64,000 nt of DNA from a virus. Of the stretch, positions 38,675-56,815 are shown one piece after another (within the stretch, counting starts at the first letter, position 1; the number at the start of each line of letters is the position of its first letter). Location: IMG/VR virus record IMGVR_UViG_3300023174_000100, positions 34,623 to 98,622 of that record; one strand, written 5' to 3'. The notes under the pieces were generated by a model. The model was given only the letters and a program-made list of their open reading frames with translations, made no database searches and had not been told where the DNA came from. The position numbers and the translations under genes are program-made.

Positions 38675-38739
38675 GCCCGGCTCTAACCTCGATTAGATCC
38701 GGGCTTCGCCCGATGAAGTGGGGGGGGCACCCAACGACA

Positions 38740-39402: not shown

Positions 39403-39549
39403 AAAAAAACAAACAGAACAGCACAATAGAACGGCACCGACGGACAGACCCATATAAAAGACGGACCGAACGAATTTTGATAGGGATGACTAACAGGAAG
39501 CCCGAGTAAATTTTTTGCGGATCAAATATCGTATTTTTAGCAAAATAAT

Positions 39550-39612
39550 TGACAAAATATTAGGAATATACAGTAACTGGTTGTATTTTTGAGTCATTGT
39601 TAACCACTTAAA
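39550..39612 (+). promoter_or_regulatory. Bacteroidota-type promoter and leader (representative of those after each type A repeat)
   Basis: -7 box TATTTTTG (TAnnTTTG) then AACCACTTAAA leader; variants TATATTTG and TATCTTCG in sister cassettes. Confidence 0.75.
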
Positions 39613-39621
39613 TATTTTGTT

Positions 39622-39834
39622 ATGTACGAAGTAAAGTTTTCTGAAGTTAAGGCTTCAAAATTTGTTCAGTTGAAAACTGGCAAATGGGCGGGTATTACTC
39701 GCGAAGGTATGATTTATGTTTCAGTTGAAAAGTATGCCATAGGTGATGCTCCTGATGACATACGAAAGACAGAAGCTATCTTGGCAACACCAGAAGAGCG
39801 TTCAAGTTTTCACTTGTTCTACTCTAAATGCTAG
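39622..39834 (+). CDS. Cassette hypothetical protein
   Basis: Own promoter and leader. Confidence 0.7.
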   Translation: MYEVKFSEVKASKFVQLKTGKWAGITREGMIYVSVEKYAIGDAPDDIRKTEAILATPEERSSFHLFYSKC

Positions 39835-39837
39835 AAA

Positions 39838-39882
39838 AAGGCCCCGCGGTAAAACGCGGGGCTATTTTTAACCACTTAAATT
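39838..39882 (+). repeat. Intra-cassette hairpin and leader, 4 copies (39838, 40568, 41263, 43641)
   Basis: AGCCCCGCGGTGACAGAGCGGGGCTATTTTTAACCACTTAAA (39838 is a loop variant). Confidence 0.85.
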
Positions 39883-39891
39883 TAAAAAAAA

Positions 39892-40083
39892 ATGAGAGTA
39901 GATTTTGGTTTTGATTTTTTTAGCTTTCGTTACGGTAAAGCAAAAATAACAGTAAGGTCTAGAGATTTCAAGGTCCTTAAAATTGAAGGAGATGCTACCA
40001 AATGGAACGAGTTAGACTATGACTCACAATACGAGGAAATAGTAGAACAGTACGATATAGTTTGGGAAAGTATGTTTGATTAA
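39892..40083 (+). CDS. Cassette hypothetical protein (acidic C-terminus)
   Basis: Leader motif. Confidence 0.65.
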   Translation: MRVDFGFDFFSFRYGKAKITVRSRDFKVLKIEGDATKWNELDYDSQYEEIVEQYDIVWESMFD

Positions 40084-40309
40084 CAAACGGAAGCCTTCGG
40101 ACGGAAACGGACGGAGGCTCTCTCTTATTTACCGGAACGTAGCTAGAAAGGGCTAGCGTATTTCAATCGGGCTGACTAACAGGAAGCCCGAGTAAATTTT
40201 TTGGGGATCAAATATGGTGCTTTTGGTAAAATAATTGCCAAAATATTAGGAATATAGCTTAACTGGTTGTATCTTCGAGTCATAATTAATTACTTAAACT
40301 TTTTCACTT

Positions 40310-40564
40310 ATGGAAAATCCATTTTATGTGGTTTTGGCTAAATTCCCTGGAGCCAATAAACAAAAGTATGTTGTTGAGGTCATCGTTAAATTTTACGATG
40401 ATGAGAATTGCAAAACTATTGGGTATTTGCAACACCCAGAAAGAAAAGAAGACGTAAAAGTCTTTGAAAATTTCTCTGAAATTGCAAAAAGATTTCTCCT
40501 TATGGAAGGGAAATGGAGAAAATGTACAAAAAGAGAGTTGAAAATGCTGAACTCAAAAAATTAA
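40310..40564 (+). CDS. Cassette hypothetical protein
   Basis: Promoter and leader essentially identical to those of 40971. Confidence 0.7.
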   Translation: MENPFYVVLAKFPGANKQKYVVEVIVKFYDDENCKTIGYLQHPERKEDVKVFENFSEIAKRFLLMEGKWRKCTKRELKMLNSKN

Positions 40565-40620
40565 TCGAAAGCCCCGCGGTGACAGAGCGGGGCTATTTTT
40601 AACCACTTAAACAAAAAATT

Positions 40621-40746
40621 ATGAGCCACGAAGAGTTTTTAAGAACCTTAGTAACCGAGGAGTTACTTGATGACTATGAGGCGGACCTCTTAGTATGTGA
40701 ATTAATTGAGGGACAAGAGGAAGAGGACGAAGAGGAAGAAGAGTAG
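40621..40746 (+). CDS. 41-aa very acidic peptide
   Basis: MSHEEFLRTLVTEELLDDYEADLLVCELIEGQEEEDEEEEE; leader motif. Confidence 0.65.
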   Translation: MSHEEFLRTLVTEELLDDYEADLLVCELIEGQEEEDEEEEE

Positions 40747-40970
40747 AACGGAAGCCTCCGGACGGAAACGGACGGAGGCTCTCTCTTATTCAATGGAACG
40801 TAGCTAGAGAGGGCTAGCGTATTTCAATTGGGCTGACTAACAGGAAGCCCGAGTAATTTTTTTGCGGATCAAATATGATGCTTTTGGTAAAATAATTGCC
40901 AAAATATTAGGAATATAGCTTAACTGGTTGTATCTTCGAGTCATAATTAATTACTTAAACTTTTTCACTT

Positions 40971-41255
40971 ATGAGGAATTCTGTTTTTTTTAATTTACCT
41001 TATTATCTTGAGGTTGAAGGCAAAAGCGCCCTATTTACTGAATGCGTATATAACGGCATTCACATTATCGAGAATGATGGAGTATTTATTTCTCAAATTT
41101 TGGCAAACCGCCAAAAATGGATGAAAGCCACAAAAAGATTCGATGTTGCTGAAAGACGTTACCTCGCACACCCGGATCGTTTTCACAAGGACTGGCCTAT
41201 ATTCATTACCTCTGTAGAGGATAAACAAGTATTTGTCCTAAACCTTAACAAGTAA
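40971..41255 (+). CDS. Cassette hypothetical protein
   Basis: Promoter and leader. Confidence 0.7.
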   Translation: MRNSVFFNLPYYLEVEGKSALFTECVYNGIHIIENDGVFISQILANRQKWMKATKRFDVAERRYLAHPDRFHKDWPIFITSVEDKQVFVLNLNK

Positions 41256-41315
41256 ATCTAACAAGCCCCGCGGTGACAGAGCGGGGCTATTTTTAACCAC
41301 TTAAATCTAAACAAA

Positions 41316-41459
41316 ATGACATTCACAAATTTTGAAGAGTTCCTAGGCATAAACCTAGACTTAGGAATCTTAGAGCAATGGTCAAACGACCTAGAGTTAA
41401 ACGAACTCCTATCAGAGATTGAGGACGAAATAGAAGAAGACGAAGAGGAAGAAGAGTAG
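41316..41459 (+). CDS. 47-aa very acidic peptide
   Basis: MTFTNFEEFLGINLDLGILEQWSNDLELNELLSEIEDEIEEDEEEEE; leader motif. Confidence 0.65.
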   Translation: MTFTNFEEFLGINLDLGILEQWSNDLELNELLSEIEDEIEEDEEEEE

Positions 41460-41706
41460 AACGGAAGCCTCCGGACGGAAACGGACGGAGGCTCTCTCTT
41501 ATTCAATGGAACGTAGCCGGAGAGGTCTAGCGTATTTCAATTGGGCTGACTAACAGGAAGCCCGAGTAATTTTTTTGCGGATCAAATATGGTGTTTTTAG
41601 CAAAATAATTAGGTAAAAGTTATGATTATACAGTTTTGCGTCGTATATTTGTAGGGCAATCGCAAGGAAGCGAGAGCAATTATGTATCACTTATAAAACA
41701 AACAAA

Positions 41707-41952
41707 ATGAGTAAGAGATTTCAAGTTAGCTACACGGGTAATGATCTACAGTTTAAGGGGTGTAAATCTATTGAATACGCCGAAACAAAGGCGGATGCAA
41801 TTTTATCGGTTTTTAAGCGTTGGCTTAATCATGATTACTTTCCTCAAGAAGATGGAAGTATTTTTGACTCATCTAATAACCTGCTTTACTCAAGAGGTGA
41901 TGATGTTATTTATTATGATGGTGGATATTTTATTGCCGAAGAGTTAGATTAG
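41707..41952 (+). CDS. Cassette hypothetical protein (copy 1)
   Basis: Identical to 42873-43118. Confidence 0.75.
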   Translation: MSKRFQVSYTGNDLQFKGCKSIEYAETKADAILSVFKRWLNHDYFPQEDGSIFDSSNNLLYSRGDDVIYYDGGYFIAEELD

Positions 41953-42007
41953 TCACCTTATAAGGCAGCCCCTAGCTGCCCTACTTTTTTAAAACACTCA
42001 AACAGAA

Positions 42008-42040
42008 AGCCCCGGACCGGAAACGGTTCGGGGTTTTTTT
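42008..42040 (+). terminator. Cassette terminator (related copies at 42636, 43174, 44831)
   Basis: CCCCGGACCGGAAACGGTTCGGGG plus T run. Confidence 0.85.
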
Positions 42041-42222
42041 ATGCCCAAACGGAAGCGAACGGAAGCGAACGAATTTTGCTAGGGCTGACTAACAGGAAGC
42101 CCGAGTAAATTTTTTGCGGATCAAATATCGTATTTTTAGCAAAATAATTGCCAAAATATTAGGAATATATAGTTTTATGTTGTATTTTTGAGTCATTGTT
42201 AATCACTTAAATATTTTCCGTT

Positions 42223-42627
42223 ATGAAAATCACATTTGAAATTTCTCAATCAATTGCAGACCTATTAGAGTATTGCCAATCTGACAAATACTCTGATTTT
42301 GAAATGGCACACGATGAAAATGGCGTGCCTTACAGAAACAAAGCTAGAATGGTAGACTTAGAGTTTACCAACTCTTATGCGGAGATAATCTGGAAAGAGG
42401 GCTACATGCTAATCTACACGGCGTGGAGCCAGTTCACCTACGAAATTGAGGAAAGAGACGGTAAAACATACTGCACCTATAATGGCGCGGTTAAGGGGTT
42501 CCTAAAGCAGGCTTTAATCCCTCACATTACCCCAGCTCCAGGTATTAACATTCATGATTGCATGTGCCACTCCTCTACTCACGGTACACTTCTATTCGAA
42601 GAATACTTACTCGCTAGAGGATTATAA
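42223..42627 (+). CDS. Cassette hypothetical protein
   Basis: Promoter, leader and terminator. Confidence 0.75.
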   Translation: MKITFEISQSIADLLEYCQSDKYSDFEMAHDENGVPYRNKARMVDLEFTNSYAEIIWKEGYMLIYTAWSQFTYEIEERDGKTYCTYNGAVKGFLKQALIPHITPAPGINIHDCMCHSSTHGTLLFEEYLLARGL

Positions 42628-42872
42628 TTGAAACTACCCCGGACCGGAAACGGTCCGGGGTTTTTTTATGCCCAAACGGAACCGAACGGAAGCGAACGAA
42701 TTTTGCTAGGGCTGACTAACAGGAAGCCCGAGTAATTTTTTTGCGGATCAAATATGGTGTTTTTAGCAAAATAATTAGGTAAAAGTTATGATTATACAGT
42801 TTTGCGTCGTATATTTGTAGGGCAATCGCAAGGAAGCGAGAGCAATTATGTATCACTTATAAAACAAACAAA

Positions 42873-43118
42873 ATGAGTAAGAGATTTCAAGTTAGCTACA
42901 CGGGTAATGATCTACAGTTTAAGGGGTGTAAATCTATTGAATACGCCGAAACAAAGGCGGATGCAATTTTATCGGTTTTTAAGCGTTGGCTTAATCATGA
43001 TTACTTTCCTCAAGAAGATGGAAGTATTTTTGACTCATCTAATAACCTGCTTTACTCAAGAGGTGATGATGTTATTTATTATGATGGTGGATATTTTATT
43101 GCCGAAGAGTTAGATTAG
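42873..43118 (+). CDS. Cassette hypothetical protein (copy 2)
   Basis: Identical to 41707-41952. Confidence 0.75.
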   Translation: MSKRFQVSYTGNDLQFKGCKSIEYAETKADAILSVFKRWLNHDYFPQEDGSIFDSSNNLLYSRGDDVIYYDGGYFIAEELD

Positions 43119-43388
43119 TCACCTTATAAGGCAGCCCCTAGCTGCCCTACTTTTTTAAAACACTCAAACAGAAAGCCCCGGACCGGAAACGGTTCGGGGT
43201 TTTTTTATGCCCAAACGGAAGCGAACGGAAGCGAACGAATTTTGCTAGGGCTGACTAACAGGAAGCCCGAGTAAATTTTTTGCGGATCAAATATCGTATT
43301 TTTAGCAAAATAATTGCCAAAATATTAGGAATATATAGTTTTATGTTGTATTTTTGAGTCATTGTTAATCACTTAAATTTTTACTACT

Positions 43389-43634
43389 ATGTCATCATTA
43401 ATTGTAAGTCAAGTATTGACTAATTTAATCATTTCAACAATGGTTGAACAAAAGTACTTTGGTTCTAAAAAATCACAGGAAAAGTACTTAGAATCTATGT
43501 TAAAAATAAGAGAGGGATTTTACAGATTAAAAGGTAATTTTCCAAATGAAGTTGAAAACATTGATGTACAGTCAACAGAAAGGCTATTGAACACGGCTGT
43601 AGAATTTATTCAGGATTGCTTAAAAGAAGCCTAA
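43389..43634 (+). CDS. Cassette hypothetical protein
   Basis: Promoter and leader. Confidence 0.7.
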   Translation: MSSLIVSQVLTNLIISTMVEQKYFGSKKSQEKYLESMLKIREGFYRLKGNFPNEVENIDVQSTERLLNTAVEFIQDCLKEA

Positions 43635-43692
43635 AAACAACAGCCCCGCGGTGACAGAGCGGGGCTATTTTTAACCACTTAAACAAAAAATT

Positions 43693-43824
43693 ATGTCAAA
43701 AACTCAAAAAATCCTAATAGACATCAAAAATAATTATATAGAAATTATTTGCATGTCTTTTTATGTAGGAATGTTATTAATGATTTTGTTAGTAATCATA
43801 GGCACTATAATCAAAAACATTTAG
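43693..43824 (+). CDS. 43-aa membrane peptide
   Basis: Same leader as 40621; one TM segment. Confidence 0.55.
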   Translation: MSKTQKILIDIKNNYIEIICMSFYVGMLLMILLVIIGTIIKNI

Positions 43825-43914
43825 AACGGACGAACCCCGGCTTAGAACGGTCGGGGTTCATCTTATCATTAGAACGCATTACATTTTATCATATCACATT
43901 TCAAACACATTAAC

Positions 43915-44184
43915 ATGAATAGTCTATCATCTCTTTTGAATAATGATGCAATCCAATTTGGAACGCATGTAATGAGATTTTTATCCATTGATGCAGTTCC
44001 TCATGATTGGGCATTCTGGATTAAATTATTATTGGTTATCATTGTCATTAATAACATTTGGGATATATGTAAGGAATTATTAAACATTATAAGTAAAGAT
44101 GATAGGATTGATTTAAAATGTATATTCAATGATTTAGTTTGGATTTATATAGCATTAGTTTGCATGAAGTATTGGTTTTTATAG
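43915..44184 (+). CDS. Small membrane protein
   Basis: Two hydrophobic segments; lies in a compositionally skewed tract. Confidence 0.45.
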   Translation: MNSLSSLLNNDAIQFGTHVMRFLSIDAVPHDWAFWIKLLLVIIVINNIWDICKELLNIISKDDRIDLKCIFNDLVWIYIALVCMKYWFL

Positions 44185-44390
44185 ATGATGATAGATGTAG
44201 TTTACGGCTGGGATTGGTTTATGATTAATCCCCGCCAAATTTTGCTAGGGCTGACTAACAGAAAGCCCGAGTAATTTTTTTGCGGATCAAATATGGTGTT
44301 TTTAGCAAAATAATTAGGTAAAAGTTATGATTATATAGTTTTATGTTGTATTTTTGAGTCATTAATTAATCACTTAAATACTTTATCCTT

Positions 44391-44822
44391 ATGGAAAACA
44401 ATCAGAATTATGTGGCGACAATATTCAATGCCATGTTCCCAATTTTAAACACTGCTCAAGTCTATGTTGGATTTGGAGTTGGGCAGGAAGATACAAAATT
44501 GGCATTCTATGAAGCGTTCCGGAAATGCCAAAAAGAATTACAGGACGGTACAGAAATTTCAATTGGTCCTGAATTTTTTATCCAAGAATTCAAAAATTGG
44601 GCAAAGAAATCAGAAGAGATAATTTTTATGTCTTTGTTATCTTATCACCCCGAAAAGTTTTTCCCTCAACAAATAGATGCACTACCTGAAGAATCTGAGT
44701 TTTGGGAGGGGATGTACCAAAAGGAACAATGGGAACAGTTCGACGAATCTCAACACCCCTTATTCGATATATGGGTACAAGAAATGCAGGACGTCACTCA
44801 AGAAATGTGGCAAGAGTTCTAA
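44391..44822 (+). CDS. Cassette hypothetical acidic protein
   Basis: Promoter, leader and terminator. Confidence 0.75.
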   Translation: MENNQNYVATIFNAMFPILNTAQVYVGFGVGQEDTKLAFYEAFRKCQKELQDGTEISIGPEFFIQEFKNWAKKSEEIIFMSLLSYHPEKFFPQQIDALPEESEFWEGMYQKEQWEQFDESQHPLFDIWVQEMQDVTQEMWQEF

Positions 44823-45052
44823 AACCAAACAGCCCCGGCCGAAAACGACCGGGGTTTTTTTATGCCCAAACGGAAGCGAACGGAAGCGAACGAATTTTGC
44901 TAGGGCTGACTAACAGGAAGCCCGAGCAAATTTTTTGCGGATCAATTTTAAAAAATATTGAAATTTATTTGCTAAAAGTTATGAAATATAAAAATCTTGT
45001 TGTATATTTGTAATGCAATCGCAATGAAGCGAGAGCATTAAAAAACAAAGTT

Positions 45053-45352
45053 ATGAAAAATTTAGAAAGTGTTGCAGTTGAATTAAAAGAGGTATTGGCT
45101 GCAAAATCAATTTTAGAAGCAAGGGAAAAAACGCTTCGCGCTGAAATCATTGAAGGTTTACAGTCCCAAAACTTAACTCTATTAAAAGTAGGTGGTTTTA
45201 CGGTATCGATTCGTAAAAATAAAGTTTGGACATATTCAAAATGGGTTCGTACCTTAGAAAAAATGCTCAAAACGCGCAAAGATAACGAACAAAAAAACGG
45301 TATCGCTACATTCGAGGAAAATCCAACATGGCAATTCCTAAGCGCAAAGTAA
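45053..45352 (+). CDS. Coiled-coil hypothetical protein, paralog of 61130-61459
   Basis: Shared K..W/YTYSK.....E..LK.....E...G.AT motif. Confidence 0.7.
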   Translation: MKNLESVAVELKEVLAAKSILEAREKTLRAEIIEGLQSQNLTLLKVGGFTVSIRKNKVWTYSKWVRTLEKMLKTRKDNEQKNGIATFEENPTWQFLSAK

Positions 45353-45417
45353 ACCAAAAAGGGTAGGCGAAAGCCTACCCTACTTTAACAAATTTTTAAC
45401 ACTTTAAATTATATATC

Positions 45418-45654
45418 ATGTTAGGCAAATTAATAATCATTAGCATTTATGTTTATGTATGCGTTCCACAGTCAAACGGAGGCAAAACGGAGTACTTAGA
45501 AAAAGTAGGTACGCGGTCATGGGAGATGCCTGGAACGTTCACCAAAACGGATTCTTTGATTAAAGAAACGGTTAAGTACTATGGAATTGACCTTGAGTAT
45601 AACAGTATCAAAGTCGACTTAAATACACTACGCATAAAATGTGAGTGCAACTAA
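45418..45654 (+). CDS. Hypothetical protein
   Basis: Leader; hydrophobic N-terminus. Confidence 0.55.
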   Translation: MLGKLIIISIYVYVCVPQSNGGKTEYLEKVGTRSWEMPGTFTKTDSLIKETVKYYGIDLEYNSIKVDLNTLRIKCECN

Positions 45655-45865
45655 GGAAACTTAAGGACCCTTGTCAGAGCGAATTTCGCTCCGGCAAGGC
45701 TCCGCCTTGCCTGAGTAAATTTTTGCAGCGGCGGATCTTAACATTTCTTTAACTAAAATAGCAAAAATATTAACACTTATTAACTACTACTTATTACTTT
45801 TTTGTTTATCTTTGTAATGCAATCAAAAGCAATTAATTAATCACTTAAACGTAAAAACAAGTACC

Positions 45866-46063
45866 ATGAAAAGCACCATTTTAGAATCGAACGGTATCAG
45901 AATCATTTTCTCAGCTTCTGTACTAGGAAAAAAAGTTAGAGTAACCCAGAACGGTAGGGACATAGATACCGTGGTGAACTTTGCTTCCTTCAAGAGGTGG
46001 GCTAAGGATGTTCTAACAGAAGGTCAGCTAAGAGTCGCAAAGTCTCAATACAACCGATTGTAG
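45866..46063 (+). CDS. Cassette hypothetical protein
   Basis: TATCTTTG promoter and leader. Confidence 0.7.
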   Translation: MKSTILESNGIRIIFSASVLGKKVRVTQNGRDIDTVVNFASFKRWAKDVLTEGQLRVAKSQYNRL

Positions 46064-46338
46064 AACGGAAATTCGGGGTTGAGTTACGGCTCAACCCCTC
46101 AAATAATAGCTACCTATAAATCCTGGATTTTGTCCGAATCAATCCGCTAGCGAATTTCGCTCCGGCAAGGCTCCGCCTTGCCTGAGTAAATTTTTGCAGG
46201 GGCGGATTTTAACATTTCTTTAACTAAAATAGCGAAAATATTAACACTTATTAACTACTACTTATTATTAAAATTTAAAAAATAGTATTATCTTTGTAAT
46301 GCAGTCGCAATGAAGCGAAGGCGTTAAATAAACAAGTT

Positions 46339-46515
46339 ATGTACCTATTCATTTTAATTTTCTTTTTAGGCTGTTGGTTTCCGATTAGTTTATACGCTAT
46401 GATTTTAAATAGCGAAGCCGACGGCGATACAGTAAAACAGACGTTAACAAAATTTTTTATTGGTTCGTCCTTATGGATATTGCTAATTGTATTATTTGCA
46501 GTACTGATAATTTAA
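46339..46515 (+). CDS. 58-aa two-TM protein
   Basis: Not in the ORF track; TATCTTTG promoter, AAACAAGTTATG start. Confidence 0.55.
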   Translation: MYLFILIFFLGCWFPISLYAMILNSEADGDTVKQTLTKFFIGSSLWILLIVLFAVLII

Positions 46516-46601
46516 CAAAACGTTAACACCGAGGGTATTGCATAATACATTCAATACCCTTATCTTTGCTTTATAATTTTTAAACCACAAAAAACTTAAA
46601 A

Positions 46602-46838
46602 ATGGTTACTTTAAAAGAAAAAAAAGGCGCTTTAAAAACTCTTCAATCGGCTATTAAAAAGGCAATTTCAGAAAACGGTAATTTAGATTTTACCGATTTT
46701 ATAGATGTAGCCTATGAATTGGATAACGAAATTAATAGGTTTGAAAACCAATTTAAAATACAAAAGCCCATAAGGCCGATACCTGTTGGAAACGGACCTT
46801 CAAAGGGACAACCTGGGATATATCTTTTAGCTCACTAA
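46602..46838 (+). CDS. Cassette hypothetical protein
   Basis: Type C promoter. Confidence 0.7.
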   Translation: MVTLKEKKGALKTLQSAIKKAISENGNLDFTDFIDVAYELDNEINRFENQFKIQKPIRPIPVGNGPSKGQPGIYLLAH

Positions 46839-47073
46839 TAAATAAAGAAACCCACCAAACGGAACGGTTTGGTGGGCATTCTTATGCTAGCGAATTTCGC
46901 TCAGGCAAAGCGGAGCCTTGCCTGAGTAAATTTTTGCAGGGGCGGATTTTAACATTTCTTTAACTAAAATAGGGAAAACATTAACACTTTTTTAACTAAA
47001 CCTATTATTAAAATTTAAAAAATAGTATTATCTTTGTAATGCAATTAATTAATCACTTAAACAAAAACAGGTT

Positions 47074-47793: not shown

Positions 47794-47875
47794 AAAATAT
47801 AGGGGAATGTTTGGATATTTCAAATATTCCCCTTATATTTGCAACATATTATTAATCACTTAAAATTATAAAGTT

Positions 47876-48106
47876 ATGGCAATCAACAGTAGGATATCTG
47901 CAAGCTCTCAAAACGACATAAACGAAGAGCTTATAATACTTGCAAAAGAAACGGTATCAGAACTTAAGGACTTCGACGGGTTCAACGGTATATCAAAAAA
48001 GGACTTAGAAAAATTTGTAAATTACATACTAACAATTTACGACGAAGACCCAAGCGACGACCAAATTTTTAATAACGGTAGATGCGAAGGAGGCATAAAC
48101 TACTAA
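47876..48106 (+). CDS. Cassette hypothetical protein
   Basis: Promoter and leader. Confidence 0.65.
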   Translation: MAINSRISASSQNDINEELIILAKETVSELKDFDGFNGISKKDLEKFVNYILTIYDEDPSDDQIFNNGRCEGGINY

Positions 48107-48127
48107 AAATATAATAACTTGTTTTTT

Positions 48128-48163
48128 AGCCCCGTCGGATTTAGTGTCCGTCGGGGATTTTTC
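48128..48163 (+). terminator. Terminator (near-identical copy at 49905)
   Basis: CCCCGTCGGA-TTTAGTG-TCCGTCGGGG plus T run. Confidence 0.7.
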
Positions 48164-48341
48164 ATGCCAGTGAATTTCGCTCAGGCAGGGCTTTGCCCTG
48201 CCTGAGTAAATTTTTGCAGGGGCGGATCTTAACATTTCTTTAACTAAAATAGGGAAAACATTAACATTCTCTTAACTACTAGGTATTGATTTTACCCTTA
48301 TCTTTGTATCATAATTTTAAACCACTTAATAAACAAGTCTT

Positions 48342-48836
48342 ATGAGTATTCTAAATTTCATCGAGGGCTTATCGCCTAGAAACACTTTTGCTGCTATCCA
48401 GTATGAGTCATCAGCAGAAAAGGTAGCAAAAAAGCTAACTTATGGTTGGTTGGCTGCTAATGGTATTTCTCGCGAAGAAGTGCGCTGCATTACTTTTCGT
48501 ACCTGCCAATTGGGTAGCACCTACAAAAAAAGATTAGAGAATAGAGAGGGCGAGGAAGTTGTAGTAAATCCAGGTTGGGCTAGAGCTTTGGATAACAAAG
48601 GTCATTTATTCGACAATCCAAAGAACCTAAAGAAATTTCTACGCATTTTCTTAATTCCAGGAAAACAAGTTAGATGGGGTTTTCCAGACGCAACAACAGA
48701 ACGGAATCGGTTAGCATTAGTTAAAAGAATGCAAGAAATAGAACCAGAAACGGAATCTAATGAGTTTGAATTGAGAATGATTGAGGTTGACTGCATTCAG
48801 AATCTAAAAGCAAAAGAAGTTTTTCAATTAGCGTAA
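48342..48836 (+). CDS. Cassette hypothetical protein
   Basis: Promoter and leader. Confidence 0.75.
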   Translation: MSILNFIEGLSPRNTFAAIQYESSAEKVAKKLTYGWLAANGISREEVRCITFRTCQLGSTYKKRLENREGEEVVVNPGWARALDNKGHLFDNPKNLKKFLRIFLIPGKQVRWGFPDATTERNRLALVKRMQEIEPETESNEFELRMIEVDCIQNLKAKEVFQLA

Positions 48837-48918
48837 AAAATGTGAGGGGAATGTTTGGAAATGTAAAATATTCCCCTTATCTTTGCCTTATATTAATCAC
48901 CACTTAAATAAAGTATCT

Positions 48919-49146
48919 ATGGGAACAAGACATAATTTTTATGGAATCTTAGATGATTCTATGAATGAATCACAATTAAGAGAGGAATTAAGCAAATGGA
49001 CAAGAGAAAGCTTAATTAGTTGGTTAAAATGGAATGACAGAAATGGAGTATATTATGATGAAGAAAGTATGTTAGAGTTTGGAAACATTCTCACGCATAA
49101 GGAAGCAATGGATATTATGATTAGTCAAATTATGGAAAACAGATAA
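48919..49146 (+). CDS. Hypothetical protein
   Basis: Start moved to the ATG after the CACCACTTAAA leader. Confidence 0.65.
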   Translation: MGTRHNFYGILDDSMNESQLREELSKWTRESLISWLKWNDRNGVYYDEESMLEFGNILTHKEAMDIMISQIMENR

Positions 49147-49188
49147 GTAGAATTTCAATATCTTAATCACCACTTAAATACTTAAAAA

Positions 49189-49581
49189 ATGAACAAAGAA
49201 GGTTTAAAAGTTTCGCTTACAAATGAATTGAGCGAAGAGATTTTTTTCAATGCTTTATGTAATTCATTGGATTATATGTGTAGTGGATATGGACTTGATT
49301 TAAAGTACAAACAATCTGACTACAATAATGCTAAGGCTAAATTGAGTAGTCCATGTTATGAAGATGTTTTAATGCAAATGTTAAGAGATGGAGTTAGAAT
49401 TGGATTGAAAGACCTTGAAGGTGGAATGGATACAGAATATATTACATTAGATACAGTACATGAAAGAGTTAAGAATGTTCCCTTAGACCATCTTTTAGAC
49501 ATGATAAATGATAATGATGATGCAGTTACTGGAGATGTTGTTTTACAGATTGTATTTTTAAATGAAATTATATATGGATAG
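49189..49581 (+). CDS. Hypothetical protein
   Basis: CACCACTTAAA leader. Confidence 0.75.
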   Translation: MNKEGLKVSLTNELSEEIFFNALCNSLDYMCSGYGLDLKYKQSDYNNAKAKLSSPCYEDVLMQMLRDGVRIGLKDLEGGMDTEYITLDTVHERVKNVPLDHLLDMINDNDDAVTGDVVLQIVFLNEIIYG

Positions 49582-49674
49582 GATTTAAAAAAGATGGGGG
49601 AATGTTTGGAAATGTAAATGTTCTCCCCATCTTTATATTATATTAATCCCCGCGAAAAACTTAAAAAAAGTAAA

Positions 49675-49884
49675 ATGAATAATAAACATATTTGGGAAGG
49701 TTGGACAGTTCAAGATTTTATAGATGAACTTGAGCCCACTTTTAATAGAATTATTAATAGTCATTCCTGGACAGCACCTTTTAAAAATGACAAAGAACTA
49801 AAGGAATGGCTTAAGGATAATCAACCGTATTACAAGAAAGATATCCCCGAAGTTTTTAATTATTTTAGAGCAAAGCTAAGGTAA
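49675..49884 (+). CDS. Hypothetical protein
   Basis: Start at MNNKHIWEGW after the promoter module. Confidence 0.65.
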   Translation: MNNKHIWEGWTVQDFIDELEPTFNRIINSHSWTAPFKNDKELKEWLKDNQPYYKKDIPEVFNYFRAKLR

Positions 49885-50212
49885 GAATACATGACTTGTT
49901 TTTTGCCCCGTCGGATTTAGTGTCCGTCGGGAATCTTCATGCCAGTGAATTTCGCTCAGGCAGGGCAAAGCCCTGCCTGAGTAATTTTTGCAGGACCAGG
50001 ATTTTAACATTTCCTTAACTAAAATAGGGAAAACATTAACACTCCCTTAACTACTAGGTATTGTTTTTATACTTATCTTTGTAGTGTTATAAAGAGAGAG
50101 GGTAATTAGAAAGGCAAAAAATAATTTAAAAAAAGTTTGCCTTAAATTTGGAAAATAGAAAATTACTCTTTATTTTTGCATCAGATTCTTAACCACTTTA
50201 AATTTTTAATGT

Positions 50213-50938
50213 ATGCTTTTCACAGAAGAAGTAAGCGCAAATCTAAGCGCAAAGTATGTAGCTATTAGCTCAAAGAAATTAATTAATGACCTTCAGTCTA
50301 ATGGTTTTGAGCTTTCGGGCTTTCAGACTAAAAAGAAAGGTGCTAAAAGTTCCGCGCACCTTATTAGAATGAGGTACAATAAGGAATTAATCTTAAATGG
50401 TGAAACCTTATATCCAGAGGTCGTTATCCGTAATTCTTTTGACGGAACGGTTGGGTTTGAATGTTCAATGGGGATATTTAGATTAGTATGCTCAAACGGA
50501 CTAACTGTATCGGATTCAAGATTTGAATCTAAGATTTTCAAAGTAAGGCATTTTGGAAAGAAGGCAATGGATATTTCAGAGAAAGTTATTTCAGGTGAGA
50601 TTGTAGCCAACTTTTTTGAATTGCTACCTAAACTCGAGGAATATGTATTGCAGCAAATGTCTGTAAACTTGACCGAAGAAAAGGCTATTGAATTCGCCAT
50701 GAAGGCTGCTGCTTTGCGTTTTAAGAGAGCCTTTACAGAAAATGAGGCTAAGGTATTACTTGCGTCAGAAAGGTTCGCAGATGATGAAAATACGCTTTGG
50801 GCAATTCAGAATCGCATTCAAGAAAAATTGATTAATGGGTTTGCAGGTAGAAGAAAATATTCTGCATTGAAAGACCCAAACAAGACTGCAATTATCAATG
50901 AGAGGTTAGCTAATCTTTCTATGGAGTTCGCAAATTAA
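50213..50938 (+). CDS. DUF932/DUF945-family protein
   Basis: NSFDG...G.FRLVCSNGL...RH. Confidence 0.8.
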   Translation: MLFTEEVSANLSAKYVAISSKKLINDLQSNGFELSGFQTKKKGAKSSAHLIRMRYNKELILNGETLYPEVVIRNSFDGTVGFECSMGIFRLVCSNGLTVSDSRFESKIFKVRHFGKKAMDISEKVISGEIVANFFELLPKLEEYVLQQMSVNLTEEKAIEFAMKAAALRFKRAFTENEAKVLLASERFADDENTLWAIQNRIQEKLINGFAGRRKYSALKDPNKTAIINERLANLSMEFAN

Positions 50939-51027
50939 TTTAAAAAAATGTGGGGGGAATGTTTGGAAATGTAAAATGTTCCTCCTATCTTTGTAAAATA
51001 TTAATCACCACTTTAAATTTTAAAATT

Positions 51028-51504
51028 ATGCACAATCTGCATTTAATTAGAACAAAAGCTGATTCTCATTCCGACGCTATTGGCATTGTTGAGGACTATC
51101 TATTTGATTGGGGTACAGAGAATAATTGGTTTACTATCATGGGTTCTCATTGCAAAGAAGACAAATCATTCTCTGAATCTTTTGATGAGAAATGGATAAC
51201 TAAGGATGAATTACTTAATGACCCAAATAGATTTAATTTTTTAACAGAGGTAAATGATTACTACAAGCAAGCATTCCTTAAGGTGTCTAATTTAGAGAAT
51301 ACTGAAATAGTTCATCCTTTTGATTGGAGATGTGCCGCTAATTATTGCAAAGAGCAATCTGAAATAGCAAGTCTTTCAGACCCTACTAAAGTTGATATAT
51401 GGTCAGATACTTTTTATGACGGAAGTATTGACGAACCTGGTATTTCTGAATTATACACTAATGGCAAATTTACTTTTGTTGTCTTAGTGAATATGCACTC
51501 GTAA
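51028..51504 (+). CDS. Hypothetical protein
   Basis: Start at MHNLHL after the leader. Confidence 0.7.
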   Translation: MHNLHLIRTKADSHSDAIGIVEDYLFDWGTENNWFTIMGSHCKEDKSFSESFDEKWITKDELLNDPNRFNFLTEVNDYYKQAFLKVSNLENTEIVHPFDWRCAANYCKEQSEIASLSDPTKVDIWSDTFYDGSIDEPGISELYTNGKFTFVVLVNMHS

Positions 51505-51816
51505 ATAAAAACCCTCCTGGTTAACTCCGGGAGGGTTTTTTCATGCCAGTGAATTTCGCTCGGGCAGGGCAAAGCCCTGCCCGAGTAATTTTTTGCAGGG
51601 GCGGATCTTAACATTTCCTTAACTAAAATAGGGAAAACATTAACACTCCCTTAACTACTAGGTATTGTTTTTATGCTTATCTTTGTGGTGTTGTTAAGAG
51701 AGAGAGTAATTAGAAAGGCAAAAAAATAATTTAAAAAAAGTTTGCCTTAAATTTGGAAAATAGAAAATTACTTTTTATTTTTGCATCAGATTATTAACCA
51801 CTTAAATACACAAGTT

Positions 51817-52524
51817 ATGCTTAAGCAAATTAATTTCAGATTAGGCGACGTTATCCACTGTATCGATATCAAGCCTAGTGCCACTCCGAAGCTCGCTAAA
51901 AAAGGCGAAATTATCTTACAAACTTATCATTTTTCTATTGACCAGATTAATGAAGGTAGCCTAAAAAATGACTCAAAGGTATGTTTTGATTGTAAGTTCT
52001 CTTATAATGCAAACGACGGAAAGTCAGGCGGTTGCTATACCCATGCGAACGGATCCCTAGCATGGGGATTGATTGCAAAATTAAAAGCCTTAAAAAAGCG
52101 TTTGGATAACGGATTAATTCCGGAAGGAGCTGAAGGCGTAATGGAACAAATTACGAGCGTTACAAAAAAGGTTAAAATATCCTTTGCTAGATTGGGAACG
52201 TATGGAGAGCCTACATTATTACCTTTTGAGTTGATAGAACAAATAAGGCCTTTGGTTGGTAAGGTTTCAGGCTATACTCACCAATGGCACAAACCAGAGA
52301 ATAAGCCTTATGCAAAATACTTAATGGCTAGTACGCATAATATCTTTGACGTAAAATTAGCCGAAGGCCTTGGATTCAGGTCTTACAATGCTAGTGAGGT
52401 TGAAGGTGCTATCCTTTGTCCATCAGCACCAACCATAGCAAAAGAAAAGCAAGTAAGCTGCGCTAAATGTGGATTGTGTGAAGGTGGAAAGAAAGCTAAG
52501 AATATTTACAATGTAATCCATTAA
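51817..52524 (+). CDS. Cys-rich putative Fe-S protein (Gp88-related), paralog of 47074
   Basis: CFDC...GGCY, RLGTYGEP, GYTHQW, CP...CAKCGLC. Confidence 0.65.
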   Translation: MLKQINFRLGDVIHCIDIKPSATPKLAKKGEIILQTYHFSIDQINEGSLKNDSKVCFDCKFSYNANDGKSGGCYTHANGSLAWGLIAKLKALKKRLDNGLIPEGAEGVMEQITSVTKKVKISFARLGTYGEPTLLPFELIEQIRPLVGKVSGYTHQWHKPENKPYAKYLMASTHNIFDVKLAEGLGFRSYNASEVEGAILCPSAPTIAKEKQVSCAKCGLCEGGKKAKNIYNVIH

Positions 52525-52610
52525 CATAACATTAACATAGGGGGGTATTTACTTTATCAAATATTCCCCCTACATTTGCATCAGATTATTAACCACTTAA
52601 ATTAAAAAAC

Positions 52611-53021
52611 ATGAAAAGGATTAAAGTTAGATTCTCTTTACAACGTGGAGAAAATTATATGAAATGGAGAGTGATTGGCAATAATGGAGTTGTCACATAT
52701 TACAATCCATGTGAAGTTCAATTAATCATGATGGGATGCACTTTAAAGAATAATAAGAAATTAGCTACTAAGATTTTTAATGGAGAAAGTACTAAGGTTG
52801 TATGTGCATGGATTTTATGTAATCATTTAGAGATTAGATATTCTGATTTTATTAAAGAGTCTGATTTTAAAATTAAGTACAATCCTAAAGTTGCTCCTAA
52901 TTGGACTTTTCTGGGGGAAGATATTGATAATAGGGATATTTCTCACATTGTTTCGGTTGACTATAAATTGTGTATTGATTCTATTCCTGACGGTATGGGA
53001 TTGGGGGAATATAAGAGTTAA
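52611..53021 (+). CDS. Hypothetical protein
   Basis: Promoter and leader. Confidence 0.7.
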   Translation: MKRIKVRFSLQRGENYMKWRVIGNNGVVTYYNPCEVQLIMMGCTLKNNKKLATKIFNGESTKVVCAWILCNHLEIRYSDFIKESDFKIKYNPKVAPNWTFLGEDIDNRDISHIVSVDYKLCIDSIPDGMGLGEYKS

Positions 53022-53126
53022 AAATCCCCGCGGAAAATTAACAAAACATTAACGATAAGGGTATTGCATAGTATATCCGATACCCTTATCTTTGCACTAT
53101 ATTTTAAACCACTAAATTTATTTATT

Positions 53127-53681
53127 ATGTTTGAACTAAAAGCCACCAAAGGCAATATTGATTTGTCTGTATTTAATTTGTCAACTTTGATTCAAGAGTC
53201 AAATCAGAATGTAAGAGATATAGACTCTCACAATCTAGAAGTTATTAAAAGATTCAAAGAACTTGTGCTTAGTTATTATGGTGAACTATCCAATGTTATG
53301 GATAAATTAGATTTACCTTATTTTGAAGTTAATGGTTACAACAATCTGTATGCTCATTTAGCTTGTGGAGGAGATTATGAAATCACTTTATATTCTAACG
53401 GGATTAGTGAATCTTTAATGTTTGGCCATGGTAGAGGATATATAAAAATCTATCTTGCCGCTCCTTTTGAAAGTTGTGGAAGAAAATTATCTTGCAATTT
53501 TACGGGAACTATTAGGATAGGCAAAAGATGGTTAGAGCATTCTTCTTATAAGGAATACCCCCTAGAATCTGTTTCTCAAATCATCGAACTAGGGCAAGAT
53601 GTAATCAAGCTCCATATCTTAGGTAGAGATATAAAGGACATCACAGAACTATTAATTCAAGAGAAAAAACTAATATACTAG
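53127..53681 (+). CDS. Hypothetical protein
   Basis: Start after the type C promoter. Confidence 0.7.
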   Translation: MFELKATKGNIDLSVFNLSTLIQESNQNVRDIDSHNLEVIKRFKELVLSYYGELSNVMDKLDLPYFEVNGYNNLYAHLACGGDYEITLYSNGISESLMFGHGRGYIKIYLAAPFESCGRKLSCNFTGTIRIGKRWLEHSSYKEYPLESVSQIIELGQDVIKLHILGRDIKDITELLIQEKKLIY

Positions 53682-53774
53682 TTTTAACAAAACATTAACG
53701 ATAAGGGTATTGCATAGTATATTCGATACCCTTATCTTTGCACTATAATTATTCACCACTTTAAATTTTAAATC

Positions 53775-54002
53775 ATGCAGCTAGACAATGAAATGTTAGA
53801 TAAGTTAGAATCTTGGTTTGAAACCTACAATCCTCATTGTATGATATACTCACCTTATATGGACGAAGAAGAAGAAGATAAAATGTTTGATGATTATAAT
53901 GAATTAATTGAATTATTGGAGAGAGCTAAAGCTGGCACTCTTACTAAAGATGATGAAGATGTAATAGCATTTCATATCGAGTGTATCGAAGAAGATTATT
54001 AA
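53775..54002 (+). CDS. Small acidic protein
   Basis: Type C promoter; E/D-rich. Confidence 0.7.
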   Translation: MQLDNEMLDKLESWFETYNPHCMIYSPYMDEEEEDKMFDDYNELIELLERAKAGTLTKDDEDVIAFHIECIEEDY

Positions 54003-54025
54003 TCACCACTTTAAATTATAAAATT

Positions 54026-54235
54026 ATGTTAGTAGAACTAAAAAATCTTACTAGAAAAGATTTAGTAATTACTTTAGAAGACTTACTTTCAGACGAGTTT
54101 GATTCATCAGAACTTGTGTACTTGACTGAAGAAGAACTTATTAGTGCTATAATTAATGCAGCTTTGTTTTATAAGAACGAGGCTAATTATATCCCATCTA
54201 GTGATGTATTTAATTCTTATGAAAAAAGGAAATAA
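54026..54235 (+). CDS. Small acidic protein
   Basis: CACCACTTTAAA leader. Confidence 0.65.
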   Translation: MLVELKNLTRKDLVITLEDLLSDEFDSSELVYLTEEELISAIINAALFYKNEANYIPSSDVFNSYEKRK

Positions 54236-54252
54236 TTAATAAGTAAATGATA

Positions 54253-54378
54253 AGTCAGGTGGCGGAAGGTAGACGCTAAAAAACTGTAATGAGGTTACGC
54301 TATCCTCACGTTAAATAAAAAAAGTATCAACGCGGTAGCGCGGTAGCCTTGCAGGTTCGAATCCTGCCCTGACTTCCA
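54253..54378 (+). ncRNA. tRNA-like RNA with unpaired anticodon region and a long extra arm
   Basis: AGTCAGG/CCTGACT acceptor plus TCCA, D-arm, GCAGG-TTCGAAT-CCTGC T-arm; CTGTAAT (Tyr-like) loop lacks a stem. Confidence 0.7.
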
Positions 54379-54402
54379 AAGGTTAATAAGTTTAAGTGGT
54401 TC

Positions 54403-54433
54403 GCTCCTGGCATTCTATGCCAGGAGTTTTTTT
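54403..54433 (+). terminator. Intrinsic terminator
   Basis: CTCCTGGCAT-TCT-ATGCCAGGAG plus T run. Confidence 0.85.
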
Positions 54434-54776
54434 GTTGCTAGTGAATTTCGCTCGGGCAAGGCAAAGCCTTGCCCGAGTAAATTTTCCAGGCCCCTCTTTC
54501 CAGCATGGCCAGTAATGTATGGGGATCCGGGTTTAACATTTTTTTAACATTTTCTTAGATCCTTTTAACATTTGAAATTAGGATAATAGGGAAATGGGGT
54601 GTATTTTTGCAATGTCAATTAGATGATAGGGAATAGATGAGATATAGTATGAGTTACATTTTACTGCATTTCATTTTAACATTTATTTAACATATATTTT
54701 TCATTCTATGATTATGATATTAGATAGAATGTTATTATCTTTGCGACATATTATTAACCATTTAAATTTTTAGATT

Positions 54777-55349: not shown

Positions 55350-55434
55350 GAAATAATTAAAATAGGGGGGTATTGACTTTCTCAAATATCCCCCATATAT
55401 TTGCACTATATTATTCACCACATAAACTAAAAAA

Positions 55435-55923: not shown

Positions 55924-56007
55924 CAAAACATTAACGATAGGGGTATTGCATAGTATATCCGATACCCTTATCTTTGCACTATATTTATTCACCACTAAAC
56001 TAAAAAA

Positions 56008-56788: not shown

Positions 56789-56815
56789 ATTAATCGCCAC
56801 TAAACTAAAAAAAAA

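Follow-up and report, generated by a model that had tools for sequence, protein, structure and literature searches.

The locus raises the question of what a series of imperfect palindromes between small phage genes is for. From the sequence alone they had been read as integron- or IS200-like crossover sites that mobilise gene cassettes or, alternatively, as sites for a dedicated DNA-binding protein. The window (the whole analysed stretch of 64,000 nucleotides, positions 34,623 to 98,622 of IMG/VR record IMGVR_UViG_3300023174_000100) belongs to a fragment of an uncultured freshwater (lake) T4-superfamily myovirus with Bacteroidota-type promoters. The T4-type capsid protein of the phage shares 54% identity with its counterpart in Flavobacterium phage immuto, a gene for a UvsX-like recombinase is present, and the host group is probably the Flavobacteriia.

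All 16 proposed palindromes were found, co-oriented on the + strand between 39472 and 54487 (nine of type A, seven of type B), with no further copy within the 98.6-kb record. The left-arm pattern matches the window 18 times where 2.5 matches would be expected, and none of 100 shuffles reached 18. The left arm GAATTTYGCTNNGGC occurs in 13 of the 16 copies, and those at 40158, 40819 and 41532 carry the variant GTATTTCAATYGGGC, with partial pairing retained. The right arm, GCCYGAGYAA plus a T-run, and a core of 13 nt between the arms are present in all 16, so the geometry is as fixed as had been claimed; in relatives the core has 13 or 14 nt, with an extra bulged G in some copies. The individual copies, with distances counted from the G of GAG to the -7 box, are:

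39472..39516, + strand: hairpin 1, type A, 13-nt loop TGACTAACAGGAA and T-run; heads the unit with ATG 39622; -7 box TATTTTTG at 39584, 81 nt after the G of GAG
40158..40202, + strand: hairpin 2, type A, variant left arm GTATTTCAATCGGGC; box 40270, 81 nt downstream; within a 732-bp population indel
40819..40863, + strand: hairpin 3, type A, variant left arm; box 40931, 81 nt downstream
41532..41576, + strand: hairpin 4, type A, variant left arm; box 41644, 81 nt downstream
42071..42115, + strand: hairpin 5, type A; box 42183, 81 nt downstream; canonical terminator 37 nt upstream
42698..42742, + strand: hairpin 6, type A; box 42810, 81 nt downstream
43237..43281, + strand: hairpin 7, type A, heads the conserved unit F7-F8-F9; box 43349, 81 nt downstream
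44237..44281, + strand: hairpin 8, type A, loop variant ..AGAAA, without a separate upstream terminator; box 44349, 81 nt downstream
44892..44936, + strand: hairpin 9, type A apex, GAGCAA right arm, then a class-D-like promoter; box 45003, 80 nt downstream
45681..45725, + strand: hairpin 10, type B, apex stem and TCC loop, C.U mismatch; box 45807, 95 nt downstream
46152..46196, + strand: hairpin 11, type B; box 46289, 106 nt downstream
46892..46936, + strand: hairpin 12, type B, loop GGA (flipped TCC); box 47029, 106 nt downstream
48172..48216, + strand: hairpin 13, type B, perfect 13-bp upper stem, loop TTT; box 48299, 96 nt downstream
49947..49991, + strand: hairpin 14, type B, loop AAA; box 50074, 96 nt downstream; second canonical promoter at 50171
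51551..51595, + strand: hairpin 15, type B, G-C in place of the A-T of other copies at pair 18/40; box 51678, 96 nt downstream
54443..54487, + strand: hairpin 16, type B apex, "terminal" copy; box 128 nt downstream

Hairpin 9 is a mosaic, and hairpin 10, which has no separate upstream terminator, can form an alternative small hairpin from GAGCG/CGCTC. The F9|F10 junction, occupied by hairpin 8, is kept in three phages. Hairpin 16 is preceded by a tRNA-like gene with its terminator and followed by a different, conserved region; its orthologues are found in four related records (G001, G003, G004 and G005) and in metagenome contigs. The same element, in arrays like that of the window, occurs in five related IMG/VR contigs and at loci on 42 metagenome contigs, giving 135 distinct copies.

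The proposed fold of the arms, with one extrahelical base and a G-T pair, is supported by pairing counts: in 41 copies 86.8% of cells are paired, against 26-55% with the partner slid, and in the 135 distinct copies the outer stem is 90.4% paired, against 31-60%. The extrahelical base is C or T, and G-T pairs occur in the stem. Among these 135 copies the arm bases are nearly invariant and the bulge is always present, and the apex is of five types; the helix is constant at 19-20 pairs with a 3-4 nt loop irrespective of apex sequence. Pair 18/40 is A-U in 62 copies, G-C in 33, G-U in 1 and "other" in 39, read as C.U and U.U mismatches, and no A.C was seen there by eye in the alignment of the 135. 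Of 112 distinct copies, 90 give the better fold on the + strand (for hairpin 5, -18.2 kcal/mol against -8.5 on the - strand), and hairpin 13 reaches -31.4 kcal/mol, with a z of -5.5. Covariation in the inner stem, like the folding advantage of the + strand, suggests that a single strand, RNA or ssDNA, is what folds; a model with duplex binding requires neither feature. Loop triplets occur in flipped forms (e.g. TCC and GGA), which shows that the hairpin does form in DNA, at least on occasion, and that correction of quasi-palindromes by template switching is active here. Such correction, however, could maintain arm complementarity without selection.

The TAnnTTTG motif is the established promoter consensus of Bacteroides and Flavobacterium, and a predicted box of this type lies downstream of all 16 hairpins; promoter positions given here are predictions from this consensus. 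The distance from hairpin to -7 box in the window is 80-81 nt for type A, 95-96 or 106 nt for type B and 128 nt for the last copy. Over all copies it is 81 nt in 27 of 27 of class A, 80-81 nt in 21 of 21 of class D, 79-80 nt in 6 of 6 of class C and, for class B, 94-97 nt in 81 of 85 and 106 nt in three; unclassed copies, mostly terminal, have 127-132 nt in 11 of 12. Class A and class C/D spacers share an in-register identity of only 34-40%, which is near chance for AT-rich DNA by our judgement rather than by computation. At least four promoter classes are combined with the hairpin, in regulatory modules of about 120-300 nt that head the units. A type B example is:

48217..48341, + strand: promoter module 3' of the hairpin, from an alignment of 26 type B modules of five phages

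It consists of a GC-rich spacer of fixed length and free sequence, two TTAAC pairs 11 nt apart, the -7 box TATCTTTG and the leader motif. Throughout the 26 modules the first TTAAC box is kept 18-19 nt from the hairpin, again with free sequence between them. TTAAC-N6-TTAAC occurs 22 times in forward and never in reverse orientation, all but one within the last 20 kb of the record. The fixed spacing could in part reflect common descent of whole modules. The hairpin lies about 90-130 nt upstream of the predicted start site, beyond the usual UP elements and class I activator sites, and this counts against a promoter role. The phage also has internal stem-loop promoters, e.g. at 47801 and 53700.

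Cassette shuffling in the array is real and includes gene gain, loss, duplication and reordering, so the claim that units are duplicated and reordered was correct. Three segments document it:

41543..42212, + strand: exact 670-bp duplication, copy 1 (X of X-Y-X), 100% identical to 42709-43378 at an offset of 1166
42709..43378, + strand: exact 670-bp duplication, copy 2
39883..40614, + strand: 732-bp segment absent in a population variant, joint 39882>40615

The 670-bp unit starts at 41543, within hairpin 4, contains a hairpin apex, a promoter, an 81-aa ORF, a terminator and the next hairpin with its promoter, and ends at the leader motif; it is one of two X-Y-X cassette duplications with ends at or inside hairpins. 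The 732-bp segment holds a 63-aa ORF, hairpin 2 with its promoter and an 84-aa ORF. Its joint was found in Logan contigs from three runs of three studies, with sides of up to 242 nt, and both its ends lie in a repeated "terminator plus TTTTTAACCACTTAAA leader" motif (repeat family D14), not in the palindrome. In two phages gene F13 follows a hairpin module, and in a third it has a promoter of another type in front of it; hairpin/promoter chimeras are joined on either side of the apex, and the ends of several gene swaps lie in repeats other than the hairpin. Among relatives, junctions with a hairpin are conserved in 69 of 96 cases (72%), against 155 of 284 (55%) for those without. The shuffling pattern is not tied to the hairpin, and it looks like homologous recombination among repeated regulatory DNA of the kind described for the PeSLs (promoter-early stem-loops) of the T4-type myoviruses RB49/phi1, T4/PST and KVP40/nt-1 (Arbiol et al. 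2010, PMC2839356; Comeau et al. 2014, PMC4122927), a comparison that the sequence-only reading had aptly drawn.

These data bear most directly on that reading's main proposal, in which the cassettes are mobilised at a single-strand recombination site of attC or IS200/REP type, or one cut by a structure-specific nuclease. We now regard this as very improbable. Like attC, the element is an imperfect palindrome with a variable centre and conserved ends in an array of unrelated small genes, and its + strand folds with a conserved extrahelical base; like REP sequences and IS200-IS605 ends, it is repeated and strand-biased. The two X-Y-X duplications, a chimera in which a type B left arm is fused with an apex of type C, and the flipped loop triplets would also fit. 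However, no tyrosine (PF00589) or Y1-HUH (PF01797) recombinase, for which the reading had proposed a search of the rest of the genome, was found in this record or the five related ones (together most of the genome, by our own estimate from contig layouts), and no serine recombinase (PF00239) was found in this record. IntI, R/L boxes, a GTTRRRY-type core, a Y1 transposase and RAYT are likewise absent here, the length is nearly fixed whereas that of attC varies, and the element, always tied to a promoter at a set distance, is missing from 185,579 bacterial genomes except for five single matches in unrelated taxa. Relatives' breakpoints are not confined to the palindrome, where the proposal placed them, but scattered, a pattern named beforehand as contrary to it: the indel ends in another repeat, F13 has promoters of different types in different phages, and some chimera joints lie right of the hairpin. 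Together with the better conservation of hairpin junctions and with cassettes that, unlike those of integrons, carry their own promoters and terminators, this leaves the integron-like reading unsupported; of the two roles first suggested, only the protein site is kept, as a promoter-linked regulatory candidate.

If not recombination, transcript-level roles have to be considered. The description of the array as self-contained terminator-promoter-ORF units proved correct, each unit having a predicted promoter and most their own terminator, and the enclosed ORFs are mostly unrelated, small and of unknown function. That most palindromes sit between an upstream terminator and the next promoter holds for the promoter in all 16; a GC hairpin with T-run precedes at least nine (seven by a crude scan, those at 49975 and 46180 by eye), and at three more (40186, 40847 and 41560) the preceding GC hairpin has a T-poor tail. 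It is unlikely, though a serious alternative, that the palindrome is a plain backup terminator, whose RNA hairpin and U-run would insulate against read-through, the role ascribed to the stem-loop of classical PeSLs, and be conserved by descent and gene conversion. Every copy has a GC-rich stem followed by a T-run, three type B copies were the top matches of a terminator scan, the + strand is favoured and G.U pairs occur, and in all phages the F9|F10 junction and the one between F12 and the next unit have no terminator-like structure other than the hairpin; GC stems flanked by A/T are also on record for PeSL stem-loops (PMC4122927). Against this, at least 36 of 55 copies already have, 15-62 nt upstream, a canonical terminator, whose T-run in this phage abuts the stem, AA(A) always separates the hairpin's stem from its T-run, and the T-run has only 3-4 nt in 38 of 112 copies, so plain termination is not the conserved property. 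The open 13-nt loop of type A also speaks against it, and the rigid -7 box distance across unrelated spacers, the invariant arms and the conserved bulge are left unexplained. It is improbable that the hairpin acts in RNA, either as an RNase III cleavage site or as the target of a phage RNA-binding or antitermination factor, on early transcripts that are polycistronic or arise by read-through. T7 and T3 have conserved RNase III sites between their early genes, and the present hairpin resembles these in its intergenic position in an early region, its length of about two helical turns and its distortion; the constant helix, the conserved lower stem and bulge, and the sense-strand bias also agree. 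Lying 3' of efficient-looking terminators and 5' of promoters, however, it is poorly placed for transcription and few transcripts are expected to contain it, a constant -7 box distance is meaningless for an RNA element, no Rfam family matches, and the sides of pair 14/44 vary independently (G.U 84, A-U 21, G-C 21, and 9 unpaired, read by eye as A.C).

The reading that we tentatively prefer, at somewhat less than an even chance, makes the palindromes a distal element, locked in position, of "unit-head" promoter modules in one early hyperplastic region with PeSL-type shuffling. A module would run from the end of the previous unit, usually with a canonical terminator, through the hairpin and T-run, a fixed-length spacer and a class-specific promoter to a shared leader motif and ATG. 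The hairpin would be a regulatory signal marking the roughly 16 unit-head promoters, its two conserved arms, with their mutual spacing and their distance to the -7 box both set, being candidates for recognition by RNA polymerase or a dedicated phage or host factor, as duplex or as folded + strand; on read-through transcripts it may form a hairpin with U-run and add insulation between units. Phage phi29 protein p4 binds inverted-repeat upstream activator sites at a set distance from the phage promoter. The present element shares with these two conserved A/T-rich inverted arms, a constant distance upstream of phage promoters and free sequence in between, but its arms are separated by about 30 bp and are asymmetric by 1 nt, its inner part covaries as a hairpin, it lies further upstream and its binding protein is putative.

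PeSLs are composite stem-loop/promoter cassettes of the hyperplastic regions of T4-type phages (PMC4122927). The likeness extends to repeated stem-loop, promoter and leader modules among small ORFs of unknown function, a hyperplastic early region in a phage with a T4-type capsid, class-specific variants (cf. PmSLs), and neighbouring genes gained, lost, duplicated and swapped between relatives without a dedicated recombinase. In contrast to PeSLs, whose promoters are of sigma-70 type and whose stem-loop abuts the -35, the promoters here are of Bacteroidota type (-7 TAnnTTTG) and the hairpin lies 80-130 nt 5' of the core promoter, is added to a canonical terminator, has invariant arms, a conserved bulge and a rigid promoter distance, and shows no enrichment of gene turnover; formally, the phage's internal stem-loop promoters come closer to PeSLs. 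Cassette turnover would proceed by homologous recombination between hairpin modules, internal stem-loop promoters and terminator-leader repeats, as in the PeSL mechanism proposed for T4-type phages; the phage has a UvsX-like recombinase of its own. The hairpin array thus looks like part of the shuffling promoter/terminator cassette system known from T4-type phages, and not like an integron-like machine.

The imperfect palindrome with an extrahelical base that the sequence-only reading described is present in 16 copies, all on the + strand, and none lies in the remainder of the 98.6-kb record. The arms read (G)AATTTYRCT.. on the left and ..GAGYAA(A)TTT on the right, with a length constant to within 1-2 nt, and they fold into a lower A/U stem, a single bulged C or T, and an upper stem. 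The copies differ in their apex: the nine type A copies carry an open loop of 13 nt, TGACTAACAGGAA, while the 13-nt core of the seven type B copies forms a 5-bp stem with a 3-nt loop. The right arm and the T-run are present in 16/16 window copies, and three type A copies have another left arm, which still pairs in part. The fold itself is well supported, with 86.8% of cells paired in 41 copies vs 26-55% in slid controls. Folding energies on the + strand are −18 kcal/mol for type A and −24 to −31 kcal/mol for type B, better than on the − strand, with z-scores of −2.3 to −6.5 across those window copies that were folded; among distinct copies, the + strand folds better in 90 of 112. A search of Rfam gave no family for these hairpins and only tRNA-like matches nearby, and a genome search gave no antisense partner for the type A loop or the GC box. 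In type A, loops and spacers are rich in GGA and recall CsrA-type motifs, which type B does not have. A sigma-54-like TGG-N10-GC arrangement occurs in two type A copies but, judged by eye, is not kept in the others, and it was dropped.

The window makes up the right-hand 64 kb of the 98.6-kb record, which is 56% complete according to CheckV; the related records are also fragments, each 32-56% complete. Genes of the record include those for a large terminase, a portal, a T4-type major capsid protein, a tail sheath and a tape measure, and also for a UvsX-like recombinase, a DnaB-like helicase, a family A polymerase and a ribonucleotide reductase. The capsid protein shares 60% identity with its counterpart in 'Microcystis phage Mel-JY01' and 54% with the Gp23-type capsid protein of Flavobacterium phage immuto. 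From ~37.9 kb onward the small-gene region is crowded with TAnnTTTG boxes that have TTG/TTTG ~20 nt upstream, with enrichment on the coding strand; this is the promoter consensus of Bacteroides and Flavobacterium. Sigma-70-like sites are not enriched (83 observed vs 71 expected), and in the internal promoters the TTG/TTTG stands at −33. Public DNA sequencing runs that contain the window DNA are mostly lake and freshwater metagenomes, and no RNA run is among the public runs listed as containing it. Because of the capsid, sheath and UvsX genes, the promoter consensus and the origin of these runs, we read the record as a fragment of a freshwater T4-superfamily myovirus, whose host probably belongs to the Flavobacteriia.

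Pattern scans revealed the same arrays in five related IMG/VR contigs (15 copies in G003, at least 10 in G001, 10 in G005, and 4 in G004 and 1 in G002, both at contig ends), and the element also at 42 metagenome loci; one apparent copy in contig G006 is a chance match without arms. The early proteins of the four relatives that share many of them are 70-81% identical to those of the window, and those of G002 64% over three proteins. Across 135 distinct copies from ~47 contigs, 13 arm columns are strictly invariant and a further 6 are at least 90% conserved, the bulge is kept in every copy, and the apex is of five types, namely the A loop, the B stem and further stems C, D and E. At pair 18/40, 62 copies have A-U, 33 have G-C and 1 has G-U, with no A.C seen by eye in the alignment; the two sides of pair 14/44 vary independently of each other. 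The type B loop triplets occur in both complementary forms (TCC/GGA, TTT/AAA, TTTA/TAAA), a signature of template switching at a DNA hairpin. No match to the array was obtained by megablast against 50,697 phage records, and the element pattern was not found in the nearest cultured relatives, Mel-JY01 and immuto.

The most telling new fact on the role of the hairpin is its spacing. Hairpin, promoter and leader motif form a repeated unit of 120-300 nt, in which the hairpin does not abut the promoter and instead sits 80-130 nt upstream of the −7 box, and every unit has a −7 box at a fixed distance. When the copies are sorted by the kind of promoter module, this distance is 81 nt in 27/27 class A modules, 80-81 nt in 21/21 of class D, 79-80 nt in 6/6 of class C, and 94-97 nt in 81/85 of class B, with 106 nt in three; among the unclassed copies, mostly terminal in their arrays, it is 127-132 nt in 11 of 12. 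The spacers of class A and of classes C/D are just 34-40% identical in register, which we judge to be near chance for this AT-rich DNA. The GC-rich spacer of class B keeps its length up to the first TTAAC box (18-19 nt), while its sequence is free.

Further features of the window are listed below.

47074-47793 and 51817-52524: paralogous Cys-rich proteins of ~240 aa (PHROG 2554, function not assigned), each the first gene after a type B hairpin module, in all relatives
47801-47841, 48840-48880, 50950-50990, 52540-52580, 53700-53745, 55360-55405 and 55935-55975: internal composite stem-loop promoters
45738-57650: paired TTAAC boxes (TTAAC-N6-TTAAC, 11-nt period) that precede type B and some internal promoters
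39601-55420, coding strand only: leader motif TT(A/T)A(T/C)CAC(T/A)T(T/A)AA, ~15 strict copies, 10-25 nt before many start codons
40080-40160, 40745-40820, 41458-41535 and 42040-42070: repeats of the word ACGGA(A), such as AACGGAAGCGAACGGAAGCGAAC and GGACGGAAACGGACGG
45666-45697, with orthologous junctions in G001, G003 and G005: alternative fold after array gene F12/g14, in which the left arm can pair with the upstream flank (GGAGCG-AATTT-CGCTCC)
54253-54375: tRNA-like gene 1, 123 nt, 31 bits against the Rfam tRNA model, no call by ARAGORN
58743-58816: tRNA-like gene 2, called, with an abnormal anticodon loop
38680-39400: short non-coding AT-rich repeats over ~700 nt, of TAGATG / TATATTAGATG / ATAGACAGGCATAC type, which separate the lysis-side genes on the − strand from the first hairpin

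Ten array proteins searched against Pfam and PHROGs gave DUF932, a DUF1281_C-like domain and unnamed PHROGs only. A GC-ended hairpin (GGGGAAT...ATTCCCC or GGGTATTG...ATACCC) encloses the −33 TTG/TTTG of the internal promoters, with its 3' arm abutting TAnnTTTG, and most gene turnover between relatives takes place at the junctions formed by these promoters. All 22 TTAAC-N6-TTAAC pairs are on the coding strand, and with one exception they fall within the last 20 kb of the record; type B promoters have one TTAAC box at the −33 position, and the pairs are a candidate activator or sigma-appropriation site. The ACGGA(A) repeats occupy the gap from stop codons or terminators to the type A hairpins, in the window as in relatives. 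At the F12/g14 junction a C.U mismatch persists in the main hairpin of the relatives examined; the two folds exclude each other, and both are conserved. The trailer of tRNA-like gene 1 (54390-54401) has GTTTAAGTGGTT, the reverse complement of the leader motif. The repeat stretch at 38680-39400 may act as an origin, as bent DNA or as a binding array.

The sequence-only reading took the region for an integron-like cassette array in which the palindrome would serve as a recombination site, or as a site for a dedicated DNA-binding protein, and so allow the excision, duplication and reordering of genes. Duplication and reordering hold: 41543-42212 is repeated exactly at 42709-43378 (670 bp) around a different cassette, G005 contains an older X-Y-X arrangement of a two-gene unit with ends at hairpins, and two type A cassettes stand in a different order in the window and in G003. 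The shuffling is real, and its pattern fits the homologous recombination among repeated regulatory sequences that has been proposed for the promoter-early stem-loops (PeSLs) of T4-type phages (PMC4122927); the phage encodes UvsX.

The hairpin as a single-strand recombination site did not fare as well, and we consider it very improbable, fourth among the readings, given that no tyrosine or Y1 HUH recombinase genes were found in the six records, the units have their own promoters, joints fall elsewhere and hairpin junctions are the better conserved ones. The suggested search for a tyrosine recombinase (PF00589, including IntI) gave nothing in this record or the five related ones, all of which are fragments, and that for a Y1 HUH transposase/RAYT (PF01797) gave no match in the six records, which jointly span an estimated ~74 kb left and ~46 kb right of the array, judging from contig layouts; this record also has no serine recombinase. 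IS200/IS605 and REP-RAYT elements are multicopy in cellular genomes, whereas this element has five single matches among 185,579 bacterial species genomes, in unrelated taxa, which are taken as chance, so that it is not a cellular-genome repeat. Integron attC sites have R''-L''...L'-R' boxes, a GTTRRRY core and variable length, in contrast to the fixed length and other arms found here, and integron cassettes are promoterless and served by a common Pc, whereas these units have their own −7 box and most their own terminator (a canonical one precedes at least 36 of 55 copies).

In an integron joints are expected at the element, but here they lie in other repeats and on both sides of the apex. On maps of the six phages, hairpin-bounded units keep their first and last genes, and most gains and losses occur inside units, at internal stem-loop promoters. 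In the 47 contigs, genes are followed by their commonest successor in 69 of 96 cases across hairpins vs 155 of 284 across hairpin-free junctions, a crude comparison given rough ORF calling and related contigs. A 732-bp segment, 39883-40614, which includes the type A hairpin at 40158-40202, is absent from contigs of three runs from three studies, and both ends of this indel lie within a repeated terminator-plus-leader motif; the joints come from Logan contigs of four DNA runs, which break at repeats, so joints inside hairpin modules are invisible either way. Array gene F13 stands behind a hairpin module in the window and G003 and behind an internal-type promoter in G001. One chimera, in G005, has its joint left of the apex (B left arm with C apex), and others have it right of the hairpin (D apex with B promoter, B apex with D promoter, C apex with D promoter). 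An extrahelical base in the hairpins of a cassette array thus does not by itself mark recombination sites.

The reading that we rank first, tentatively and at somewhat short of even probability, is that the hairpin would act as a position-locked upstream promoter element, recognised by RNA polymerase or a dedicated factor, and may have a secondary role in insulation, as RNA within read-through transcripts. It is placed first because the hairpin is locked to the core promoter, co-oriented with it, never found without a promoter and portable between classes. A plain terminator, ranked second and unlikely, accounts for the stem and T-run and little else. There is a T-run in every copy, and 3/7 type B copies pass a lenient terminator scan; however, in the terminators proper to this phage the T-run follows the stem directly, and such a terminator usually lies 15-62 nt upstream of the element. 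A canonical terminator has a GC-rich stem directly before a U-tract of ~7-9 nt, whereas here AA(A) always intervenes between stem and T-run, the T-run has just 3-4 nt in 38/112 copies, and the type A loop is open and 13 nt long. The geometry, about two helical turns with a local distortion, would fit an RNase III substrate, although an RNA processing or binding site, ranked third, seems improbable overall; the four ranked readings together leave part of the probability unassigned. The idea that the hairpins are promoters of an N4- or crAss-like virion RNA polymerase was dropped since there is no giant RNAP ORF and the phage is a sheath-bearing myovirus.

The closest known kind of arrangement is the PeSL cassette of T4-type phages, whose general definition the array shares: a conserved stem-loop upstream of an early promoter, repeated as a module with leader and start codon, in a hyperplastic T4-type phage region among small ORFs without known function. 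In both, indels, replacements and duplications adjoin the modules between relatives, but here turnover is not enriched at hairpin junctions and the hairpin is not a favoured breakpoint. A further PeSL trait is the mini-circle cut out when tandem modules recombine; the Logan contigs compared here are short and end at the repeats. The early promoter of PeSLs is of sigma-70 type (−35/−10), whereas the array promoters have TAnnTTTG, and the array differs further in its additional canonical terminator and in a hairpin that stands far upstream, at a rigid distance and with invariant arms. The internal promoters of this phage, with the −33 TTG inside the hairpin and the 3' arm abutting the −7 box, are closer formal analogues of PeSLs. 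The idea behind PeSLs, of cassettes shuffled by way of repeated regulatory DNA, is thereby carried beyond the T4-like phages of enterobacteria and vibrios to a distant branch whose promoter grammar differs.

We know of nothing on the early transcription layout of large Bacteroidota phages, for which the 135 copies represent a clean, widely conserved signal. A further reading, which we regard as rather unlikely, is that the hairpin is the landing site of a dedicated factor, phage-encoded or injected, which would read the folded or duplex structure through its two invariant arms, bulge and fixed height, and would switch on or off, or insulate, a regulon of ~16 unit-head promoters in freshwater flavobacterial T4-like phages. 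If true, this would be a promoter architecture without described counterpart in Bacteroidota or their phages. Since the geometry is fixed relative to the promoter, the array offers a direct way to the factor that recognises it, and a starting point for constructing regulated promoters in Flavobacteriia.
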